Origin: Pseudobdellovibrionaceae bacterium | Lineage (GTDB): Bacteria; Bdellovibrionota; Bdellovibrionia; Bdellovibrionales; Bdellovibrionaceae | DNA: 64,000 nucleotides | Direction: 5' to 3' | Assembly: GCA_039810425.1 (NCBI GenBank) | Contig: JBDHWW010000005.1 | Coordinates: 1 to 64,000 of the forward strand | Notes under the pieces: generated by a model | What the model saw: only the letters and a program-made list of their open reading frames with translations | The model's database searches: none | Told to the model about the DNA's origin: nothing | Program-made: the position numbers and the translations under genes | Part shown: piece after piece, positions 30,488 through 43,065 of the stretch | Numbering within the stretch: the stretch's first letter is position 1 | Layout: each line of letters starts with the position of its first letter

Positions 30488-31726
30488 ATGGCTAAGAAAA
30501 AAACGAAGAAACAGACACCTAAAGATGATTTGATCGAATCGCTCATGAACGATGTTCAAGAGATCAGCGATCAACCCACGCAGCACGGAAAACGTGCCGT
30601 GGATTCTTTATTTCTGGATGATGAAAGTGGCGTTGATCAAGGCAATGACGAATTCCTCGTCGGTTTCGGCGGAGAAGAAAACCGTGTTGAAGAGCAAAAC
30701 TCTCACGTTGCTGGCCTCTGGCAACAAATGAATGAACCCGGTGTTGATGCTCCGGAAAATCTTGAAGAAGTCCCTGACGTCGAAGAGTTCCGCGAAAAGT
30801 CCTTTGGTTCCGCAATGGAGCCACCAATTGTAGCCGCGGAAGAGAAATCCATTGTAGCCACCACTGAAGAGAAATCCAATCCTGAGGGCTATGATGACAA
30901 AACAGTGAATATCCAAGAGGTTGAGAGCTCAAAAGGCGGTTTTGACTCTTTGGATGAAGAACCTTCCAAGAGCCATAGCGCGGATTCTGAAAGAACGGTG
31001 GCGGTGGAAGGCTTTGCCAATCGCCAACCGAAAGCTCCAGCGAGCGTGGCGCCGAAAATCAGTTTTGGTTCATTGCGTGACCCACGTCAGGCCGCCGGTG
31101 GCCCGCCAGACGGAAGTATTTTTGCGTCAGGTGATGCGACATTGGCTCAGGCCGAAAGTTTGAAACTGGCGCAGCAACGCATTCTTGATCTTGAAAAAGA
31201 AGTGGAAAAGTACCGGCTCGAAAATGAAGAGCTGGCGTCGGCCGGTGATATCATTCGTAATCGGTCCGAAGAATTAACCGCGAGAATTTTCACACTAGAA
31301 AAAGAAAAGCAAGAAGTTTCAGACTCGTTACAAAACGAGCTGACGATCATCAAAGGGACTCTACAGTACAAAGAGACGGAAGTCGGAAAAGCCCGACTAA
31401 AGATTGAAGAGCTTGAGCTTCGCCTTAAATCTGATTTCAAGAAAATTCGTGTTCGTGAAAGAGAATTAGAAAATCGTCTAGAGCTTGTCAAAGCGGAAAA
31501 GACAGCGCTGCTGAGGGCTAAGGATGAGAATATTCTCGAGCTGAAGAGAAAGATTGATCATCTTCAAGGCGAAATGGATAATTATAGAAGTAAAGTTCTC
31601 GAGCTCAACAAGACAATTGATGCGAATCAAGAGCAATTCAAGCGCACGGTGCGTGCGTTGCGTTTGGCTTTGAGCAACTTAGAGGTTAAAGAGGAGAACA
31701 TCGTTCCTTTGAAGAAAGCTGATTAG
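30488..31726 (+). CDS. Hypothetical protein: acidic disordered N-half, long coiled-coil C-half
   Basis: 412-aa ORF; heptad repeats from about residue 220; 2 bp from the next gene. Confidence 0.8.
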   Translation: MAKKKTKKQTPKDDLIESLMNDVQEISDQPTQHGKRAVDSLFLDDESGVDQGNDEFLVGFGGEENRVEEQNSHVAGLWQQMNEPGVDAPENLEEVPDVEEFREKSFGSAMEPPIVAAEEKSIVATTEEKSNPEGYDDKTVNIQEVESSKGGFDSLDEEPSKSHSADSERTVAVEGFANRQPKAPASVAPKISFGSLRDPRQAAGGPPDGSIFASGDATLAQAESLKLAQQRILDLEKEVEKYRLENEELASAGDIIRNRSEELTARIFTLEKEKQEVSDSLQNELTIIKGTLQYKETEVGKARLKIEELELRLKSDFKKIRVRERELENRLELVKAEKTALLRAKDENILELKRKIDHLQGEMDNYRSKVLELNKTIDANQEQFKRTVRALRLALSNLEVKEENIVPLKKAD

Positions 31727-31728
31727 AC

Positions 31729-32844
31729 ATGGAGCAAGTCACCTCAGTTGAAACCGCCCAAGCTGTTAAAAAGATTAAAGTCGTTATTAGTGATTTGCAT
31801 CTTGGCAAGGGCCGCGTTTTAGAAAACGGCGGCATTAACTCTTTCGAAGAATTTTACTTTTCAGAAAAACTTGTTGAGTTCATTCATTATTACTCTTCAG
31901 GCATCTACCGTGATTACGAAGTCGAGTTGATCATCAACGGTGACTTCCTCAATTGCTTGCAGGTGGACTATCGCGGCCACTTCTTGACGGTCATAACTGA
32001 GAATGTCGCTCTTGAGGTCATTAAGTCCATCATTAAGGGCCACATGAAGGTTTTTAAAGCGATGGCGGAGTTTGCCGCCAAACCCGGTAATTCTGTGACA
32101 TATATCGTTGGCAACCATGATCAAGCGATGCTTTGGCCGGCGTGCCGTGCATACTTGAATCAAGTTGTCGGCACGCCGATTCGCTATAAGAACATCGTTT
32201 ACTTCTTTGACGGCGTTCATATTGAGCATGGTCATATGCATGAAGCAGCGAACCGCATGGATCCAAAAAAGTTTTTCCTGAAGAAAGATTTGCCGGAGCC
32301 GATTTTGAATCTGCCATTTGGTTCCCACTTCTTTGTGGAACTTGTTCTTAAGGTGAAACACAAATATCCGCATGTGGATAAGATTCGTCCGTTCTCGAAA
32401 ATGATTAAGTGGGCGATGTTTAACGAAACCCGCATGCTTGTGAATTCGTTTATCTCGTTAATCGTTTATTTTGGGAAGACGTTGGTGGTGAAAGATCCGC
32501 GCCGGCATTGGCCATTTAAACGTATTTTACAAGTCATCCTTGAGAGCGCGATCTTTCCTGATTTGAGTGAAGCTGCCCGCCGCGTGTTGGGGGACGAGCG
32601 CGTTCATACCGTGATCTTTGGCCACACCCATGTTTACCAATATCGTCAATGGTCCACGGATAAAGAATATTTTAACACCGGGACTTGGACCGAGCTGACC
32701 TCGCTGGATATCGTTTCTTTAGGTAAGATCACAAAGCTCACATATGTGTTAATTGAATATCCCGAAGATGGCGGAAGACCGCGGGGCCGTTTGAAGGAGT
32801 GGCGTGGTTATCACCGTATCGAGGAAGACGTCGCGGTTTCATAG
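31729..32844 (+). CDS. Calcineurin-like metallophosphoesterase
   Basis: ISDLHLG, NGDF, VGNHD, EHGH, FGHTH, NTGTW. Confidence 0.9.
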   Translation: MEQVTSVETAQAVKKIKVVISDLHLGKGRVLENGGINSFEEFYFSEKLVEFIHYYSSGIYRDYEVELIINGDFLNCLQVDYRGHFLTVITENVALEVIKSIIKGHMKVFKAMAEFAAKPGNSVTYIVGNHDQAMLWPACRAYLNQVVGTPIRYKNIVYFFDGVHIEHGHMHEAANRMDPKKFFLKKDLPEPILNLPFGSHFFVELVLKVKHKYPHVDKIRPFSKMIKWAMFNETRMLVNSFISLIVYFGKTLVVKDPRRHWPFKRILQVILESAIFPDLSEAARRVLGDERVHTVIFGHTHVYQYRQWSTDKEYFNTGTWTELTSLDIVSLGKITKLTYVLIEYPEDGGRPRGRLKEWRGYHRIEEDVAVS

Positions 32845-32981
32845 GGCGTTCGAGAACAGGACCAGCGTTTAGCCCGGCGTCATAAACCTCAACCAGACCC
32901 TAAGCGAAAGGCTAGCAAAAAAAATCTTGAGGAGACCAAGATTGTCTTCAAAGTCCGAGGCGATCTATACTGAGTGCTGTT

Positions 32982-33914
32982 ATGATGAATCACGATGATG
33001 ACTCAAGAGATGTATCAGAGAAGACGAGCGTAGTGAGCTCGGACACCTTCAAGGGCCGTATTCAAGCTGCGGACGGGGCGCCTCCCGTTGTCGTGGTGTT
33101 GATTGGTCCTCCGGGATACGTGGGAAAACAGTACCCGATTTCTTCGAATGATATCGTGATCGGCCGGTCTGTCGAGACGCAGGTGTATATCGACGACAAG
33201 AGCTTGAGCCGATCGCACGCGAAGTTCGCCATCGTTAGTGGCGAAGTTTCTATTATTGATTTGGGCTCCACGAATAAAACCATCGTGAATGGCCAGGCGT
33301 TGCCGCCACTGGCTCCCTGCAAATTGAAGAACAATGATCAGATTAAAACGGGCAATGTCGTTTTCAAATTTCTCGAAACTGGAAATATCGAAGCCCTGAC
33401 CAATCAAACGATGTACGAAAAAGCCAATCGTGATGCCTTGACCGGTGCTTATAGTAAAGGCTCGCTCCTTGAAAAAGGCCCCGAGGCCGTGAAGCGCTCG
33501 GAGCTTCTCAATGAAGCGATGAGCATTATCGTTTTTGATATTGATCACTTCAAAAAGATCAACGACGGTCATGGTCACCCTGCCGGTGACTTCGTGCTGA
33601 AAGAGCTGTCTGGTATTGTGACCTCGAAGTTGATTCGTTCCAACGATTACTTCGCCCGTTATGGGGGAGAAGAGTTTGTTTTGATTTTGTCAGGCGGTAC
33701 GGCGAAAATGGCGAACGAAATCGCTGAACGTATTCGGCAGACCATCGAGACTCACGCGTTTGTGCATGAAGGCAAAGTCATTCCGGTGACGATTTCATTG
33801 GGGGTCGTGACAAAAAGCACAAGCGATGTGGAATGGCCTGAACTCTTTGATCGTGCCGACAAAGCTATGTATGCTTCGAAACAGGGTGGACGAAACCGCG
33901 TGACGATCGCGTAG
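32982..33914 (+). CDS. dgcB: FHA-domain diguanylate cyclase (DgcB-like)
   Basis: FHA (IGRS, SRSHA, DLGSTNKT) plus GGDEF domain (DIDHFKKIND, RYGGEEF); N-terminal tail EKTSVV. Confidence 0.85.
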   Translation: MMNHDDDSRDVSEKTSVVSSDTFKGRIQAADGAPPVVVVLIGPPGYVGKQYPISSNDIVIGRSVETQVYIDDKSLSRSHAKFAIVSGEVSIIDLGSTNKTIVNGQALPPLAPCKLKNNDQIKTGNVVFKFLETGNIEALTNQTMYEKANRDALTGAYSKGSLLEKGPEAVKRSELLNEAMSIIVFDIDHFKKINDGHGHPAGDFVLKELSGIVTSKLIRSNDYFARYGGEEFVLILSGGTAKMANEIAERIRQTIETHAFVHEGKVIPVTISLGVVTKSTSDVEWPELFDRADKAMYASKQGGRNRVTIA

Positions 33915-34001: not shown

Positions 34002-35458
34002 ATGACATCGGATACTAGTTTGACGCCGGCTGAGCGGCTTATTTTGCTCAGAAAAAAATTAGGGCTTTCGCAGCGAGAGATGGCAAAGGAGTTCAAAGTT
34101 TCTAACGGAGCCATAGCGCTTTGGGAACAAGGCGGACGGCCGGTGCCCGGCTCTGTGCTTAAGCTGTTGGACCTCTATGAAGGATCTCCGCAGGATCTGC
34201 CCGAAGACCTTCGGGCGATATTTTCTAAAAATCTGGTGGTTATTGAAGAGGAAAGGGAACTACTCAATTCCCTTCAACACTATTTATCCGACCACCTGTC
34301 TTTGAACTACATTAAAGGAAAAATTCTAACTCAGTTCGTCCGGCAGTTGATTTTCTTTTTTCGCGAATCCAAGGGACTCACGATGAAGTTGATGCAAGTT
34401 GCCAGTTATATCGAGACCGGTTTGCCGCATGAGGCTCGTAAGGCTTTGGCAAAGTTTCCGCAAAGCTCCAAGCCGAGCCCGTACAAAACTGTGAAAAGAA
34501 TTATAAGTGAAGACCTTGGGCAGAGCCCGGAAGCACTTTTTTCCGAGTGGAGCAAGGACCCCTTGGCGGTCACCAGCTTAGGGCAAGTTCATAAGGCTCG
34601 TCTTAAGAGTGGCAGACTGGTCGCTGTCAAAGTACAGCACGATGATATTCAAAAAATTTTAGACAAGCAGTTTAAGAGCATCGATTTAATGGCGCGGCTG
34701 TTAACCATGTTTAAGCAATCCGACCATCCGGTCCTTGAGGATATCAAAGAGAAAATTCATCGCGAGTGTGACTATCAGGCAGAGGCCCGGCAGCAACTGA
34801 GGTTTAAAAAATTCTTTGAGGGCGATCCTCAAATCGTGATTCCAGATGTGATTTTGGAAATGAGTTCAAAACGCGTTCTGGTGACGGAGTTTATTGAGGG
34901 GCTTTCGTATCAGGAGTTTATCGAGCAAGGAACTCGTGAACAGAAAAATGCCGCCGGTCTGGCGATTCACCGGTTGTTGGCCCGGTCCGCAGTGCAAACC
35001 GGACTTATTCATGCAGATCCTCATCCGGCGAATTTTATTTTCTTTGACGGAAAAGTGGCGGTATTGGATTTTGGCCGCGTGGTCGAATATACGGGCGAGC
35101 GTTTTGAAATGGAGAGACGCTTTGTGCACGCGCTGCTGACCGAGAATTATTCTCTTGCTCAGACGATGATTATTAAAATGGATGGCATTCAAGATCCTGA
35201 AACTTTCAATTTTGGCGAGCTCTGGAACTTTCTGGAGCGTCAGCAAACCCACTATACCCGCAACGAAAACTTTAAGTTTTCTAGAGAGCACTTGATTCGC
35301 CTGGCGGCGAATGCGCGCCGATTTAGCGGGCGCCGGCATTTGAAAATCGATAAGTGGTTTTTTGGGCATTTTTTACTAGCAATAGTGGCTTTAGCCTTTT
35401 GGCAGATTTAGAGACTGACGCTAATTGGCGCGCTGAAATGTTGTCATTTTTAGCATAA
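34002..35458 (+). pseudogene. XRE-HTH / ABC1(UbiB) kinase fusion, copy 1, frameshifted near the 3' end
   Basis: LRKKLGLSQREMAKEF..AIALWEQG HTH; TSLGQVHKA, VAVKVQ, HADPHPAN, LDFG; ORF stops at 35411 but the paralogue-like C-terminus continues in another frame to TAA 35458. Confidence 0.75.
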
Positions 35459-35602
35459 CAAAGCTGTCCGCGCTTACGGTGAAAGCATTTTTGAATAGCT
35501 ACGGCGGAAAATCCTTGCGGGCAGCAGGATTCCCACGCTTCGGCAGTTATTCAATTTGTGGAAGGGGCTGAGTCTCTGCTAGTCTAAATTCACGGAAAAA
35601 AT

Positions 35603-37099
35603 ATGGCACAATCGCAACGGCTAGTAAGTCTCAGAAATTGTTTAGGTCTATCACAAAGAGAAATGGCAGAGGAGTTCGGTGTTTCCGCTGCCGCGATCGC
35701 GCTGTGGGAGAACCGAAGACGGCCGATTCCGGGCCCCGTACTGAAACTGATGGAGCTGTATGAGCATGATGGTGGTGCCGCAGGAGTCTATCGTGGTACT
35801 GCGGAGGCCGAGGTTGAGGAACACTGCGCGGGATTTCAAAACCCGGTTTGGAAGGAAAAAGAGGCTGAAATCCTGGCCAGGTTGTGTGAGTCCGTCGAGG
35901 ATGTCCGCGGTAGTAACAGTATTAAAAGCCGACTATATACTACGGCGCTGTCGCAGTTCTTGAATTTTTTTAAACACGCTCAAGGTGTGACGATGAAAGT
36001 GGCTCACCTTGCAAGCTTCATCGAACTAGGGTTGCCCGGCGAACTTCGTAAAGCCTTTGCCGATATGGCTGAGCATGCGGAGCCTTTGCCGCCGGAAACT
36101 ATCGCGGGAGTCATTAGGAAAGATTTTGGCCGTGAACCGGAAGAGCTGTTTCTTAAGTGGGACAAAGACCCGTTGGCGAGAACCAGCTTGGGCCAAGTGC
36201 ACCGAGCTCAGTTGGTGGATGGCACCGAAGTCGTTGTCAAACTGCAGAATCCGGATATTCGTAAAATACTTGAAAACCAGTTCCGGAAAATTGAAGGGCT
36301 TCACCGTATCTCTTTGTTTTTTGAGAGTGGGGATGAACTGTTGCTTGAAGATATTAAGCGACAAGTTCTGCTTGAGATTGATTACCGGCGCGAAGCATAC
36401 AATCAACGTCGTTTTCAAAATATATTTGTGAATGACAAACAGGTCATAGTACCCAGGGTGCATCTCGAATATTCAAGTGATCGCGTTTTAACTTCAGACT
36501 ATATTGCCGGCCGCTCTTTCGACGATTTTAAACGTCAATCATCTCAGAAAGAACGCGATGAGGCCGCACAAACAATTCATCGATTTATTGCCAAATCCCT
36601 TATGGGACCCGGCTGGTTTTATGCTGACCCTCACCCACGAAACTTTAAATTTCTTGACGACAAAGTAGTATTTTTAGATTTCGGCCGGATTGTTGAATAC
36701 GACGTCGAGTTCCTACAGTTAAATCGTATCTTTTTTAAGGCCTTATTAAATGAGGACTACACCCTGGCGAAGTCATTAATGATCAAAATGGGTTCTGTTG
36801 AAGATCCCGAAAAGTTCAATTTCGAAGTTTTTTGGAGCTTTCTGAGCTTGCAACAAGTTCACTACATGACCAATCGTAAATTCAAATGCACCCCGGACCA
36901 TATGCGCCGCCTGGCTTTGGAAGCCCGCCGCTTTGGTGGGCGCAAGGGATTGAAGGTGGATAAGTGGTTTTTTTGGGCGTTCGTTTATCAGAATTCCGTC
37001 TTTAGCATTTGTGCCGATCTTCAAGCCGAGAGCAACTGGCGCTCAGATGTTTTTGCCATACTCGACGAGTGTGAAGCAGAGACTTTAGTCTTAAAATAA
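35603..37099 (+). CDS. XRE-HTH / ABC1(UbiB) kinase fusion, copy 2 (intact)
   Basis: LRNCLGLSQREMAEEF..AIALWEN; TSLGQVHRA, VVVKLQ, EIDY..EA, YADPHPRN, LDFG. Confidence 0.88.
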   Translation: MAQSQRLVSLRNCLGLSQREMAEEFGVSAAAIALWENRRRPIPGPVLKLMELYEHDGGAAGVYRGTAEAEVEEHCAGFQNPVWKEKEAEILARLCESVEDVRGSNSIKSRLYTTALSQFLNFFKHAQGVTMKVAHLASFIELGLPGELRKAFADMAEHAEPLPPETIAGVIRKDFGREPEELFLKWDKDPLARTSLGQVHRAQLVDGTEVVVKLQNPDIRKILENQFRKIEGLHRISLFFESGDELLLEDIKRQVLLEIDYRREAYNQRRFQNIFVNDKQVIVPRVHLEYSSDRVLTSDYIAGRSFDDFKRQSSQKERDEAAQTIHRFIAKSLMGPGWFYADPHPRNFKFLDDKVVFLDFGRIVEYDVEFLQLNRIFFKALLNEDYTLAKSLMIKMGSVEDPEKFNFEVFWSFLSLQQVHYMTNRKFKCTPDHMRRLALEARRFGGRKGLKVDKWFFWAFVYQNSVFSICADLQAESNWRSDVFAILDECEAETLVLK

Positions 37100-37258
37100 G
37101 ACCCGATCTTTTGGATAAGCGACTTAGTTTCGGGGCTTGTCTCGTATTAGGACTTGCCAGTCCCAACTTTTAAAGATGTATATAGCATTCTTCAGGCGTT
37201 GAAAGATGAAGGTTTTATCAAAGTCTCCTATTGCTCTGATCTGGGATCATATTCCCCG

Positions 37259-37286
37259 AGGCTCAGCGTAATGCTGAGCCTTTTTT
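37259..37286 (+). terminator. Intrinsic terminator
   Basis: AGGCTCAGC-GTAAT-GCTGAGCCT-TTTTT. Confidence 0.7.
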
Positions 37287-37335
37287 CTTGCCGCTAAAGT
37301 CTTGGGCCGGATATCTTAAAAAATCCGGAGGTCTT

Positions 37336-37605
37336 ATGAAGCCATCGTTATTGTTGATCGCTCTTCTTTTTTCGGTGAGTACTTTCGCGCAGCAGGGAAA
37401 TGATCAGCGCACCGTTAGTGAGTGTGCGACGGACCTTAAAATTAAGCTCTGGTGGGATAGTACCAAGAAAAAAGAGGCCGAAAAGTTCTGCGCAGAGTAT
37501 TCCCAAACTACAATCGATTGCGCCATCAATAATATGAAAGCCAAGCACTTGACCTATACTCAATTCGAAAGTGCGGTCAAAGATTGCCACCGGACGCGCA
37601 AATAG
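37336..37605 (+). CDS. Small secreted four-Cys helical protein
   Basis: GGAGG RBS, signal peptide ending TFA, 89 aa. Confidence 0.75.
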   Translation: MKPSLLLIALLFSVSTFAQQGNDQRTVSECATDLKIKLWWDSTKKKEAEKFCAEYSQTTIDCAINNMKAKHLTYTQFESAVKDCHRTRK

Positions 37606-37662
37606 TCTGGTTAAAAATAAAACTATTTTCTTTTGCAATCTCCATCACTCATAATGCACCCC

Positions 37663-39175
37663 ATGACCAATTCATGGCCACTTACATCCAGCAGAGCGTT
37701 TAGTTTTACTACGGGAATTTTTGGGGTTTTCCCAGCGGGAAATGGCCAAAGAGTTTCAAGTTTCACCGGGTGCCATTGCGCTTTGGGAAACCGGCTCACG
37801 GGTTATTCCAGGCCCGGTGTTGAAGTTGATGGAGGTTTATGAAAAAGCCCTGCCGACGACGACAAGAAAGAATTCCTCACTCAAAACTGACGGTTTGTTG
37901 GTTGAGTTCAGGGAAGTTTTCAATGCAAAAGGCAACGATGAAGTGCAAGGGGCGTTGGAGCTTATCAAGAACGGTTTAGATAATTTTCTGGATGATTCCT
38001 ATGCCATGAATAGTTTGCGTGGCCGTCTGAAGTTGATTTTAGTAAAGAGACTTTTGAAGTCTTTAAAAAACTCCAAAGGTCTTTCAACGAAAATCGCCCA
38101 ACTGGCGAGCTTTATGGAAATAGGCCTTTCCCCGGAAGTCCGTCGCGCTTTAGGAACCCTACAGTCTCGCAGCCTGCCAAGTAAGTTCAACGAGATTCAA
38201 AGCTTTTTGGAAGAGGAATATGGCAAGCCATTAAAAATGGTATTCTCGCATTTTCAAGAAAAGCCCATTGCGGTGACGAGCTTAGGGCAGGTTCATTATG
38301 CGAAATTGCCTGGAGGCCAGGAAGTGGCCGTTAAAGTCCAACATCCCCGGATTCACAGTATATTGCAGAAACAGTTTCGCAATATGGAACTCTTGAAAAC
38401 CTTGGGAGCTTTTTTAGGAAAGAACGACTACGGGATTATCGAAGAGCTGCGGCGGGCGTTGTTTCAGGAGTGTGATTATCAGCTAGAGGCTTTGAATCAA
38501 GAGAAGTTCCGAAATATTTGGTCTGAGGACCCGAGGATTATTGTTCCTTTTGTATACCGGGATTTAGTCCGAGACCGTGTCATGGTGACAGAGTTCATTC
38601 GGGGTGAAAGTTTTCACAGCTTTTGCGTCCGCGCCAGCCAAAGCCAACGAAACGAGGCGGCCGAAACGCTTTTGGACTGTTTAACCAAAGCGTCCTTTGG
38701 CTACGGCCAAATGTATACAGATCAACATCCGGATAATTTTTTATTCCGTGATGGGAGAGTCGTGATATTGGATTTTGGCCGGGTGGTTGAATATCCCGTG
38801 GACCGTTTGAAAGTCGAGTGTCGGTTCTACCTGCACATGATGAATCAAGAATATGAAAAGTGCCGGGTCCTTGCGGAGACTCTTTTCGCCAAGGACGCAA
38901 ACGATTTTGATTTCGATGCATTTTGGAATTTTCTGCAAAAATCCCATCAGCATTTAATAATCAATGAAAAGTTTAAGTTCTCGCGCCAATATGTGCAGTC
39001 TATCAGCCGGGAAGGGCGGATCTTCTCGAAAAAATACCAGCTCAAGATGACCAAAGAAGCGTTTTGGGCCTATGTTTTCGGTGCGAGCTCTTGGGGGATT
39101 TTGGCAGACCTTGATTCGGACATTAATTGCCGTCAGATTGCTTTAAAGAATGTCTATCTCGGCACTCAGCTTTAA
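37663..39175 (+). pseudogene. XRE-HTH / ABC1(UbiB) kinase fusion, copy 3, apparent +1 frameshift near the 5' end
   Basis: ATG 37663 gives MTNSWPLT; after one extra base (about 37687) the other frame reads PAERLVLLREFLGFSQREMAKEF, collinear with copy 1; TSLGQVH, VAVKVQ, YTDQHPDN, LDFG; long ORF 37721-39175. Confidence 0.7.
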
Positions 39176-39425
39176 TAATTTAAAGCAGGTCCCAAATTAT
39201 AGGGGCCCGCTTTTGAAATTCGATAATTGAGCGATTTTAAAAGTGAAATTTTCGAGCGCTTACACTGTGAGCGAACCTGGAATTGCCTCCCTGTATCATT
39301 GCACAAATTCGAGGCAAACTAGTCTGGTTTGATACAAGTTTTTTTATTTTTCATCGCGGTTTCGTCAAGCCCTCTTACCCTAATGTGAGTGTTTCACACG
39401 TTATTACACGTTGCTGGGGGTATTT

Positions 39426-39827
39426 TTGTATAAGCGGGTTTGTCTGTTGATCTGCCTCGTGATGGGGCTAGGGAGTTTCTTCGCGGTCTCAAATAGTAAG
39501 GCGACGCCCGAGAAGAATGCGAATGTAGCAGTTCCTGGGAAAGCGCCACAAACGACAAAGAATCAGTCGAGGCAGCAGTATCAGCTGATGATGCAAATGC
39601 AACAACAGCAGTATGCGAAAGCTCAATTAATCAGCAAATACGAAGAGCGCCAAAAAATTCAGGACGCTCTAGACTCGGTCTATCAGCGGGTTGAGCAGGC
39701 TAAGACCTTGCATCAAAGCAGCCGTTCAAAAGATGCGGCTCAAGCCGAGCGTATGCTGAAAAAACGGCAAAGCGCGCTGGCTGAGGAAATAAAACGTCTC
39801 GAGTCCCACCTAAAAAATAAATTCTGA
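39426..39827 (+). CDS. Exported Gln-rich coiled-coil protein
   Basis: GGGGG RBS and TTG 39426; hydrophobic N-terminus; helical body. Confidence 0.65.
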   Translation: MYKRVCLLICLVMGLGSFFAVSNSKATPEKNANVAVPGKAPQTTKNQSRQQYQLMMQMQQQQYAKAQLISKYEERQKIQDALDSVYQRVEQAKTLHQSSRSKDAAQAERMLKKRQSALAEEIKRLESHLKNKF

Positions 39828-39871
39828 TCAAGTAAATCAATCGGAAATAATCACGTAACAAGGAGATTTGA

Positions 39872-41827
39872 ATGGGAAATACATGGAAGAGCCTAATTTT
39901 AGGCGCATTATTAACAAGTATGACCGCTTGTAGTGGCGGCAGCTCAGTTAGCGACGGTGCTTCTAACAGTACTGATTTGGTGATCTCGGGTAAGGTTGGG
40001 GCTATGGGAACGATGAGTGTTTCCAACAACGCCTCTGAAGGTGTCGGCAAGTTTGGTACCTACGACAATGTTAAGCTGTACGTTACAGTTTACAATGACC
40101 CACCACAAATCACGGTGGCTAACTTAGGGAGCGACGGCTCTTTCTCTGTCACGCTTCCAAACGCCAGCGGCACTGTCATCGGTGCGCAATTTAAGAACAC
40201 GCTGACCAACGTGGTAAAGCATGTGTACTTCCAAGATTCTAGCAAAAAGGACATGAATTCTTCTGACATGCTAATGGAATCTTATCCACTGAAAGGAAGT
40301 GTTAACTTCGGTACTTTGGATTTGTCCGGAGCAAAACCAGTTATTGACGTTGTTGCTGTCATCCCGGCTGAAAATCGCGCGGATGCTGGTGGCGATGTTG
40401 TTGGTTATGACTTTAGTGGTTCCTTCAAAATGGCTAGCTATAGCATTCCTCAAGCACTCAAAGACCAAGGCTTCATTACAGCTGAAGTGGACAACGGTGG
40501 TAACCATCAATCTTGTGGCGATGAGCCCTGTCTGCCTGTAGACATGCCAATCACTTTGGTGAAGTACTCAGGTAAAGAGTTCACTAAGGGCGCGGGTTGT
40601 ACCGAAAGCGACTGTAAAGCAGATGGTACGGAAGGAACTGTCGGCACGGCAAATAAGTACGGTCTTTCTATCTGGGAAGGTCCGGCATCAGGCGCAGGGA
40701 GCGGTCTTCAAGATTGCGGTTACAATTCAGGCTTCACGGCGGACTCAGCTCGCTTCGGTGCTGGTATTCACATTGCTTCTGCCGCAATCGGTTCTCAAGC
40801 GATGAGTTTGGCTAATTTCACATTCGGTACGCTGGGCGGGACTGAGCCATGGATGAAGACGACCGCGGAGGCTCAATATGATGTCTATGATTGCGCACCA
40901 AAAGCGCACGTGGTCAGCGGGACGACTTATAATCTGCATGTATGTAAAGCTTTGGTGTGGGCGGATAACGGCAACACGCTCGATAAGACCATTTACTATG
41001 CAAATGAACAAAGTGCGGACAACGGTTGCCTGGAAGACGGTACTAACAAGCCTGTGATGGTTTCTGACTGGAGTATTAATCCCGAGAATCCGAGTTGCTG
41101 GAGTGGTACGGAGGTTTTCCCTGGCTTTAAGCGCACCAGCTGTCACTATGTGAACCAAGATCCAGATGGCAGTGGTCCTGTGGCGGCAACATCATTCACT
41201 TGTAAAAGTGGACAAGGAACTTTTGCAGACGCAGCTTTGACGACAGCAGCAGTTCCTGGCATTAACTATTTCACAGATCCGACGACTCGTACAGGTTCAC
41301 CGGCTAAGCTTTTAACTAAAGGCGGTCTTTGCAGCAGTCTTCCGACTGGAACGGATGCTGAGAAGCTCGCTTCCTACCAGTGTTTTGCTCAAAGTTATGA
41401 TCGTAACGACGGCGGTGGCTGTATGCGTGAGTATCGCTTCAACTGGGGGGCTAAAACTTCAGCTGATTTTGTGATGACAGACGGTCGTCCTCGTCCAAGT
41501 TCGAACTTTTTGACAGACATCGTGACTTATTCAGCAGATGGAAACACGTTCTTTGTTAACAACAACGAAAAGGAAACAGTGGGTATTTCTTCCGGCCAAA
41601 ATGGCGGAATGGAATTCTGCGAAATCGAGAGCTCTACGAAACTTGTAGGTAAGAAAATGAGTGATGGCCAGCAATTGGTCACCTTGGTTCAATCTGGAGT
41701 TTTGCTGAGCTCTGACAAGACTGCTTGTGTGGCCGCAGTGAACGGTGCCGATACATGGGAAAATGGCAATCTTTCATACCGTGTAGGCGAAGGCAAAAAA
41801 TTCATGTTCATTTTGAACAAACAATAA
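39872..41827 (+). CDS. Large Cys/Gly/Ser/Thr-rich lipoprotein of unknown function
   Basis: AAGGAG RBS; lipobox MTAC followed by an SGGSS linker; 16 further Cys. Confidence 0.85.
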   Translation: MGNTWKSLILGALLTSMTACSGGSSVSDGASNSTDLVISGKVGAMGTMSVSNNASEGVGKFGTYDNVKLYVTVYNDPPQITVANLGSDGSFSVTLPNASGTVIGAQFKNTLTNVVKHVYFQDSSKKDMNSSDMLMESYPLKGSVNFGTLDLSGAKPVIDVVAVIPAENRADAGGDVVGYDFSGSFKMASYSIPQALKDQGFITAEVDNGGNHQSCGDEPCLPVDMPITLVKYSGKEFTKGAGCTESDCKADGTEGTVGTANKYGLSIWEGPASGAGSGLQDCGYNSGFTADSARFGAGIHIASAAIGSQAMSLANFTFGTLGGTEPWMKTTAEAQYDVYDCAPKAHVVSGTTYNLHVCKALVWADNGNTLDKTIYYANEQSADNGCLEDGTNKPVMVSDWSINPENPSCWSGTEVFPGFKRTSCHYVNQDPDGSGPVAATSFTCKSGQGTFADAALTTAAVPGINYFTDPTTRTGSPAKLLTKGGLCSSLPTGTDAEKLASYQCFAQSYDRNDGGGCMREYRFNWGAKTSADFVMTDGRPRPSSNFLTDIVTYSADGNTFFVNNNEKETVGISSGQNGGMEFCEIESSTKLVGKKMSDGQQLVTLVQSGVLLSSDKTACVAAVNGADTWENGNLSYRVGEGKKFMFILNKQ

Positions 41828-41861
41828 CTCTGACCCTGTTAATGGGTATTGCGGTTCATTG

Positions 41862-41891
41862 GCCCGGGGAGTTCTCTCCTCGGGCTTTTTA
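41862..41891 (+). terminator. Intrinsic terminator
   Basis: GCCCGGGGAG-TTCT-CTCCTCGGGC-TTTTT. Confidence 0.75.
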
Positions 41892-42238: not shown

Positions 42239-42856
42239 ATGTTGCGAGATCTTATGAAAACAGATCTTGAGCTCGTAGAAGAAGTGAAAGCTGGAAACAG
42301 AAGATCTTTTTCTGAACTTGTAAAGCGACATCAGAAAGGACTTCTGAGGATGAGTCTGAGATTCGTAAAGGATCTCGATACAGCGGAAGACGTAGTGCAG
42401 GAAAGCTTCATCAAGGCATTTGAAAAGCTTCACAGCTTTGAAGGTCGGGCGAGTTTTAAAAGCTGGCTCTTCCAAATCGCGGTGAACAATGCACGAAACA
42501 GAATCCGCGACTCTCGTAAAAACATGATGGACATCGAGAATGTCCAGCTTGCTGTCGGTGCTGAAGCCGAAAGTGGCATGGTTCACGGAGCTGTGGCGGG
42601 TATGCTGCAGGAAGAAGTGGACAAACTCCCCGACAGGCAAAGAACAGCCCTCGTGTTGCGTGTGTACGAGGATCTCAGTTTCAAGGAGATTGCGGAGATC
42701 ATGGGTTGCCCCTATGACACTGCGAAAGCGAACTATCGTCATGCTCTGATGAAACTTCGCGAAGTATTTGATGAACAACAAGACTTGAAGTCCTGGACGG
42801 AGGAGGTCGGGGGCTTCTTGGTCGAAACCAACCAATATGCGGAGGCCGAAGGATGA
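42239..42856 (+). CDS. ECF RNA polymerase sigma factor
   Basis: AEDVVQESFIKA, SFKSWLFQIAVN, LPDRQR, LSFKEIAEIMG. Confidence 0.93.
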   Translation: MLRDLMKTDLELVEEVKAGNRRSFSELVKRHQKGLLRMSLRFVKDLDTAEDVVQESFIKAFEKLHSFEGRASFKSWLFQIAVNNARNRIRDSRKNMMDIENVQLAVGAEAESGMVHGAVAGMLQEEVDKLPDRQRTALVLRVYEDLSFKEIAEIMGCPYDTAKANYRHALMKLREVFDEQQDLKSWTEEVGGFLVETNQYAEAEG

Positions 42857-43065
42857 ACAGAAAGCAACTACTGGGTGGAGTGCTTGAAGAAGTACAACTC
42901 CCAAACAACCAAGCCTATTTCGATCGTTTACATGACAAAATCATGGCCAAAATCGAGGACATTGAAATGGAGGCCCCCGCACGCCCAGCGATGCGAAGCT
43001 TCGAGAAATCGAAAGAATTTCTTCGGGATCACTGGCGAGGGTGGCTTTATTCTCGCGAAACCTAG
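42853..43065 (+). CDS. Small protein coupled to the ECF sigma gene (anti-sigma-like)
   Basis: ATGA overlap; P...YFDRLHDKIMAKI resembles N-termini of genes that follow ECF sigmas. Confidence 0.6.
   Translation: MNRKQLLGGVLEEVQLPNNQAYFDRLHDKIMAKIEDIEMEAPARPAMRSFEKSKEFLRDHWRGWLYSRET

Follow-up and report, generated by a model that had tools for sequence, protein, structure and literature searches.

XRE-ABC1 fusion proteins of Bdellovibrionota as predicted one-component regulators of genes for exported Cys-rich proteins and lipoproteins

Three neighboring genes at positions 34002 to 39175 of contig JBDHWW010000005.1 (Pseudobdellovibrionaceae bacterium, assembly GCA_039810425.1) encode proteins in which an N-terminal XRE-type helix-turn-helix (HTH) is joined to an ABC1 (UbiB/COQ8-type) kinase-like domain; the window analyzed here is the first 64,000 nucleotides of that contig. 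From sequence comparison, we predict with a probability of roughly 0.65 that the fusion acts, in soluble form, as a one-component transcription factor for genes of exported Cys-rich proteins and lipoproteins, switched by its ABC1 domain. That it binds DNA at a palindrome at position 39258 is a prediction we hold with high confidence. An earlier note on this DNA had offered a one-component regulator as one reading of the fusion, and an operator palindrome that tracks the fusion supports it; the target, a neighboring exported-protein and lipoprotein unit, had not been seen there. The main features are as follows.

34002..35411, plus strand: XRE-ABC1 fusion copy 1, a 469-aa open reading frame (ORF) with a one-base frameshift at the T6 run 35358-35363
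35603..37099, plus strand: XRE-ABC1 fusion copy 2, intact, 498 aa
37663..39175, plus strand: XRE-ABC1 fusion copy 3, with ATG 37663 one base out of frame and the frame open from 37670
39258..39272, no strand assigned: predicted operator GCTTACACTGTGAGC, score 14.4, 6/7 pairs palindromic, intergenic
39411..39827, plus strand: 138-aa ORF that opens the predicted target unit; its N-terminus is hydrophobic
39872..41827, plus strand: 651-aa Cys-rich (17 Cys) predicted lipoprotein, predicted target
41861..41886, plus strand: terminator-like hairpin ending the target unit (consensus scan only)

The three paralogues lie on the same strand, and each combines the XRE HTH with a full ABC1 domain. Pfam ABC1 (PF03109) scores 172 to 181 bits in the window copies (cutoff, 22.9), and HTH_3 scores 30.9 bits in copy 1, 25.5 in copy 2, and 22.1 in copy 3, slightly below its cutoff of 23. 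An N-terminal HTH had been proposed from the letters alone and is borne out by these scores in copies 1 and 2 and by a predicted short four-helix domain (helices at residues 3-14, 18-25, 29-36, and 44-56 of copy 2; predicted local distance difference test [pLDDT], 83 to 95). The same HTH subfamily also occurs in stand-alone proteins of 70 to 90 aa in mobile or defense contexts (Menshen NsnABC, IetA, type IIG restriction-modification, ParA, recombinases, and TolC efflux).

The operator model was obtained by a palindromic motif search on the upstream regions of 17 stand-alone HTH genes only, with no fused loci used. The result was a 15-bp palindrome with the consensus GCTTACAATGTAAGC and the core ACA-N-TGT. 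Two sites, spaced 36 to 57 bp apart, are present in 12 of the 17 training regions, and all five held-out stand-alone genes have a site scoring at least 11.4 just upstream. In the part of the window between 30 and 43 kb, the best-scoring site is the one at 39258, 5′ of the exported-protein/lipoprotein unit.

Sites of this type accompany fused genes in other genomes. A score of at least 14 within 2.5 kb was found at 7/18 discovery fused loci and 4/11 held-out fused loci, versus 1.8% of 2,466 genes of genome G000; for a score of at least 11.5, the counts were 11/18 and 6/11, versus 12.9% of the 2,466 genes. No locus with an unfused ABC1 gene reached 11.5 (0/13; 1.3-kb flanks). Upstream of the neighboring exported gene, sites scoring at least 11.5 were found in 8/15 cases, versus 2.2% of 2,931 G000 upstream regions and 5/176 upstream regions of G000 lipoprotein genes. 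Such a predicted intergenic operator stands before a neighboring exported gene at window position 39258 and at L096, L132, L133, L134, L135, L138, L139, and L143 (more weakly at L144), irrespective of that gene's placement upstream of, downstream of, or divergent from the fusion. The fused gene's own upstream region has a site at p <0.05 in only 4 of 21 loci. We compared 34 homologues of the lipoprotein in the window: the predicted operator precedes all three that adjoin a fused gene, none of the 27 whose genomes lack a detected fusion, and none of four distant paralogues; on this comparison, it follows the regulator, not the lipoprotein.

For genome-wide counts, we used an exact operator pattern, written after the fused loci had been seen. 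Despite a count of only 2 to 15 per genome, a match adjoins the fused gene in 8/10 fusion genomes; five genomes lacking the fusion have 1 to 5 matches. In fusion genomes, 12 distant matches were inspected, and four of them (L161, L162, L164, and L165) precede exported proteins; the L164 match is a 25-bp perfect palindrome before a lipoprotein gene, and the L162 and L165 proteins have relatives among the targets that adjoin fused genes at other loci. Separately, G000 has an intergenic match, GCTCGCGCTGTAAGC, at C4:22119 (L171:3620), with an exported subtilisin-like protease gene on one side and an NADH dehydrogenase-like operon on the other, which is a possible distant operator site. A subgroup comprising L140-L142 and L137 (recognition helix VAHTAV/ISSWE) has a variant palindrome of the TTCCACAATGTGGAC type before a divergent small lipoprotein gene; palindromes of this type score low with the general model.

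The predicted targets are Cys-rich across loci and belong to several unrelated or distant families that neither Pfam nor NCBIfam names. At 13 of 16 fused loci, a predicted lipoprotein gene is no more than two genes away from the fusion (adjacent at 9 loci), versus 20% of G000 genes (11% adjacent) and 1/17 stand-alone HTH loci; the 16 loci represent about 12 independent groups, and the same rule gave 5/11 in held-out fused loci. In the window, the 138-aa ORF shares 34% identity with its counterpart in genome G001. The structure model of the 651-aa lipoprotein is poor (pLDDT, 61) and mostly beta, with an N-terminal beta-sandwich; the best VIA-align result (Z, 7.0) covers only residues ~31 to 168, a common beta-sandwich. 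No Pfam or NCBIfam family and no Foldseek match below 1e-3 was found for this protein, and its Atlas matches were uninformative. Its family occurs in 78/384 genomes of the order, and a surface binding or adhesion role is our guess.

The fusion appears from these sequences to be a small family with a single origin. A tree built from 148 kinase domains (64 fused and 84 unfused, the latter a subset taking every second or third match) places 63 of the 64 fused domains in one clade (support, 0.977) together with one member without a detected HTH, and one degenerate fused protein falls outside. Of the 120 best matches to copy 2, the top 34 were aligned, and all except the partial P0019 begin with the HTH; two matches carry the source name Bdellovibrio AarF/UbiB protein. 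The ESM Atlas contains an automatically named cluster of 60 (ABC1, 100%; HTH_3, 70%) whose commonest taxon is Bdellovibrionota. By HTH profile search, fused genes are present in 16/401 genomes of the phylum and 17/384 of the order. In the phylum to which G435 belongs, an HTH search covering 401 genomes found nothing at 1e-15, but only ~16 candidates were scored in each genome, so this is not evidence of absence, and a contig locus search with the full alignment (kinase pattern) returned mostly unfused relatives. The paralogues are old and their tandem layout is not conserved, because in G001 the orthologues of copy 1 and copy 3 are intact and form a divergent pair adjoining the same lipoprotein gene; its third fused gene lies elsewhere.

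Two of the three window genes are damaged. The earlier description of a tandem triad stands as to three co-oriented HTH/ABC1 paralogues, 65 to 73% identical in the HTH and 39 to 47% in the kinase domain; it does not stand as to intact copies of full length in an unbroken row, since copies 1 and 3 each contain a one-base frameshift, copy 1 is 469 aa long, and an 89-aa exported ORF and a terminator-like hairpin separate copies 2 and 3. In copy 1 (64% identical to its intact G001 orthologue), the conserved C-terminal helices of the family shift frame after the T6 run and stop at 35458. In copy 3 (72% identical to its orthologue), homology begins at 37673, and the ATG that matches the orthologue, 37663, is off frame by one base; the in-frame start options are ATT 37670 and TTG 37721, the latter dropping HTH helix 1 (ORF 37721-39175). 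Both frameshift regions, X2 (35270-35419; depth, 3.6) and X9 (37549-37728; depth, 3.1), are letter-identical in contigs of two other studies. Assembly error was ruled out by these contigs (depth, 3 to 4); because they span both places without a difference, the frameshifts are real in the DNA of the organism. Identities to the G001 orthologues by codon position are 0.70/0.81/0.36 for copy 1 and 0.79/0.86/0.43 for copy 3, and because this conservation shows long selection, the damage is recent. Copy 2, the sole intact window copy, is likely the working regulator of the 39411-41827 unit in this strain. A shared operator read by copies with different inputs had also been suggested: a palindrome was found and follows the fusion, but three different inputs are doubtful in the window strain because two copies are frameshifted.

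Copy 2 consists of the HTH (residues 3-56), a low-confidence linker (58-83), a helical accessory region, and the kinase-like domain (model pLDDT, 84), with ~25 low-confidence residues between the HTH and the enzyme part. The top 12 Foldseek rows for this model are COQ8A, MSMEG_1954, and Rv3197 (MABP-1). The catalytic Lys, Glu, Asp, Asn, and DFG are present in all three window copies; across the fused family, the catalytic Asp and Asn are found in 64/64 proteins and the VxVK Lys and DFG Asp in 63/64. The KxGQ motif retains its Lys in 63/64 and its Gln in 62/64 fused proteins, and its Gly in only 26/64, versus 81/84 unfused; it reads KLMQ, KVAH, and KIAQ in copies 1, 2, and 3. The alanine-rich loop is likewise relaxed in the fused clade (AVTS/ARTS in place of AAAS). 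No transmembrane-like stretch was found in 48 full-length fused proteins (19-residue hydropathy, >1.9). Equivalog cutoffs were not reached for UbiB (TIGR01982, 139 and 156 of 488 bits; NF003404, 91 and 96 of 667 bits) or for MABP-1 (NF050082, 104 and 161 of 800 bits). Homodimer prediction for copy 2 scored 0.00 and was used neither for nor against any reading. Three further ABC1 genes in G000 are unfused. Sister-group ABC1 domains in Bdellovibrionota carry long, differing N-terminal extensions (L101:6705-9194, 829 aa; L084:1142-2755, 537 aa), and other ABC1 fusions may exist there.

These features suggest a mechanism in which two HTHs would bind the 15-bp palindrome and control neighboring genes for exported Cys-rich proteins or lipoproteins; in some genomes, the regulator would in addition control itself and one or two lipoprotein genes farther away. 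By analogy with MABP-1/MSMEG_1954 and COQ8, the N-terminal accessory helices would be shifted by a membrane lipid or hydrophobic small molecule acting with ATP/ADP, and this shift would move the tied HTH and thereby switch DNA binding. MABP-1 is an ATPase whose dimer is swapped via N-terminal helices, with erythromycin bound between subunits (PMC6208485), and the accessible part of PMC8696161 describes the MSMEG_1954 accessory domain as closed when empty and open when ADP bound; the HTH joins the fusion immediately N-terminal of the region that moves in MSMEG_1954. For COQ8/UbiB, the available portion of 10.1101/149823 reports an ATPase that is boosted by alkylphenols and cardiolipin and lacks protein-kinase activity, and, in COQ8, a KxxQ motif that accompanies the former activity, not the latter. 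A repressor would be likelier than an activator, because at L136, L139, L185, and L186 the site and the start region overlap. In the window, L096, and L133, the operator lies 49 to 50 nt before a second shared AGTCTGGTT-like element, and there it could activate. A sigma-70 scan found no promoter at the target unit (3 sites found versus 9.8 expected), so repressor or activator cannot be read from promoter position.

Several results weigh against this regulator reading. Our advance prediction, an intergenic site scoring at least 11.5 in most held-out loci, failed: strictly, 3/11 have one, or four with L176, where the ORF overlapping the site looks spurious. Of the remaining held-out loci, four have weaker sites (8 to 11) in the expected place and three have none, one of these with a divergent recognition helix. 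L097, L181, L183, and L184 have no convincing operator. Just 4/12 distant exact matches are clear, and several lie inside genes. A metagenome scan by operator alone gave 0/80 loci with the HTH or kinase; we estimate that chance matches dominate such a scan. The genomes are related, so binomial p-values overstate significance, and the lipoprotein counts come from a pattern rule of our own. At one locus outside the group (L001:5728-9524), the fused gene is 3′ of a cytochrome P450 gene, and a weak palindrome lies between the P450 gene and a divergent short-chain dehydrogenase gene, not before an exported gene; that position would fit a small hydrophobic inducer. Unrelated proteins also bind similar palindromes, for example CopAso, according to the accessible part of PMC11610964.

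That overlap bears on a further explanation: the palindrome might serve a different factor, or it might be a relic in a decaying window locus. Two of the three window copies are frameshifted and the lipoprotein family (78/384 genomes) is far wider than the regulator, as a foreign or relic site would allow, but the site is missing before all 27 lipoprotein homologues whose genomes have no detected fusion, copy 2 is intact, and copies 1 and 3 still show the codon-position conservation typical of long selection; we consider this explanation quite improbable. It is unlikely, to a lesser degree, that the fusion is a bifunctional enzyme-repressor whose HTH binds the operator while the ABC1 domain is mainly catalytic or sequestering and does not switch DNA binding, its job being to use ATP to handle or phosphorylate a molecule (a lipid, a phenol, or something antibiotic-like) tied to the exported proteins. 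Such a protein would accord with a full catalytic set under purifying selection, with MABP-1, an erythromycin-binding ATPase (PMC6208485), as nearest solved sequence relative, and with the low-confidence ~25-residue connection in the model. The relaxed KxGQ Gly (26/64 versus 81/84 unfused) and alanine-rich loop, however, suggest a changed role, G000 retains three other unfused ABC1 genes, and the targets are unrelated exported proteins of no common enzyme family.

The earlier note's other proposal, a self-repressing kinase toxin or anti-phage protein resembling HipBA in one chain, fared poorly, and we regard it as very improbable. Stand-alone HTH relatives do head defense operons (Menshen NsnABC, IetA, and type IIG restriction-modification), the spread of the fusion is patchy (17/384 genomes), and PD-T4-6 is matched weakly (E, 5e-6 or worse). 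Yet the domain is ABC1, with no HipA_C match by Pfam in the window copies at E 0.01 and only weak generic kinase matches in PADLOC, and the KxxQ Lys (63/64) and Gln (62/64) are kept, a motif linked to ATPase in COQ8 in the accessible part of 10.1101/149823. The surroundings of fused genes are housekeeping and exported-protein genes, and none of 53 neighbors scanned with Pfam resembled a defense gene. In the window and several other loci, moreover, the predicted operator stands before the lipoprotein unit and not before the fusion.

The remaining window features are these.

35472..35486, no strand assigned: weak operator-like site GCTTACGGTGAAAGC 5′ of copy 2 (score, 7.8; p ~0.085; not significant)
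37258..37282, plus strand: terminator-like hairpin 3′ of copy 2 (consensus scan only)
37336..37605, plus strand: 89-aa ORF with a signal-peptide-like start and four Cys, no family assigned
37604..37612, plus strand: AGTCTGGTT element 5′ of copy 3 and also of its G001 orthologue, possible promoter part
39321..39329, plus strand: AGTCTGGTT element 49 to 50 nt downstream of the operator, with equal spacing in L096 and L133

The AGTCTGGTT-like element, followed by an A/T run, stands 5′ of both copy 3 and the target unit, has 20 copies in G000, and is a possible promoter element. Directly 5′ of copy 1 (30488-33914) are genes for a coiled-coil protein, a metallophosphoesterase, and an FHA-GGDEF diguanylate cyclase, which were not found beside the G001 orthologues or at other compared loci. 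Directly after the lipoprotein unit (42239-43065) are an extracytoplasmic function sigma factor gene and a small downstream ORF, not conserved by the G001 orthologue. The stand-alone HTH genes (L098, L146-L160, and L188-L192) encode small XRE controllers heading defense or mobile-element operons, and some lie beside HipA, a reverse transcriptase, or ParA; this subfamily is apparently undescribed. Tandem ACA-W-TGT palindromes lie by these genes, and their outer arms seem to track recognition-helix residues, a possible recognition code. In P0218 and L187:4179-4817, the same HTH is joined to ~150 to 170 non-ABC1 residues. P0121-P0173 contain 4 to 34 tandem XRE-like repeats with high HTH-profile scores and are unrelated to the fusion.

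More broadly, and at somewhat less than even odds, a UbiB/COQ8-type ATPase may be the sensor of a new class of one-component regulators, in which lipid or small-molecule binding and nucleotide turnover toggle an XRE domain captured from mobile defense-operon controllers and so determine the surface lipoproteins shown by these predatory bacteria, perhaps as a reaction to molecules from prey or competitors. The ligands of UbiB/COQ8/ABC1K proteins and the purpose of their ATPase are a long-standing open question, as the available part of 10.1101/149823 states, one that bears on human coenzyme Q biology and plastid signaling. A natural fusion with a predicted operator would amount to a reporter assay, in which ligands, nucleotide state, and motif mutants could be screened via gene expression; if the prediction is true, the operator is the first transcriptional readout of ligand binding by a UbiB-family domain. 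The fusion would also supply a regulator, operator, and regulon for uncharacterized Bdellovibrionota surface lipoproteins and a case of a defense-operon controller domain recruited once into a host regulator.

The earlier note did not recognize the fusion as a characterized system, which agrees with the full-text literature searched, in which no description of the XRE-ABC1 fusion or its operator, and no kinase-like ATPase input domain of an XRE regulator, was found (subscription papers and supplements being outside coverage). The accessible parts of Kannan 2007 (PMC1821047) and Galperin 2005 (PMC1183210) mention no HTH fusion of UbiB. One-component XRE regulators are already known; the ABC1/UbiB input domain, operator, and regulon appear undescribed. 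By sequence profile, the best solved relatives are MABP-1 (Rv3197) and MSMEG_1954 (E, 2e-76 and 5e-72), which share solubility, a helical accessory region and kinase-like domain, as well as the same catalytic residues; they differ in having no HTH and a role in macrolide tolerance, not transcription, and the fused kinases form their own clade. COQ8A/ADCK3, Coq8, and Escherichia coli UbiB share the fold (Foldseek E, 1e-19; template modeling score, 0.61 to 0.65 of query), the KxxQ Lys and Gln, and the catalytic residues, but they are membrane-anchored quinone-synthesis factors without a DNA-binding domain, and the fusion differs from them in its relaxed KxGQ Gly and alanine-rich loop. XRE-cupin regulators such as PsdR combine an N-terminal XRE HTH with a C-terminal ligand-binding domain and a palindromic operator near their targets; in the fusion, the input domain is instead a 380-residue kinase-like ATPase. 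In HipBA, a single locus holds an XRE HTH as well as a kinase-like fold, whereas the fusion is one chain, with ABC1 in place of the HipA kinase and an operator mostly before other genes. C proteins are controller-type small XRE proteins of defense operons, and the stand-alone HTH relatives resemble them in preceding Menshen, IetA, and type IIG restriction-modification genes, with tandem palindromes upstream; the fused form, in contrast, usually has a single site and is predicted to regulate exported proteins.

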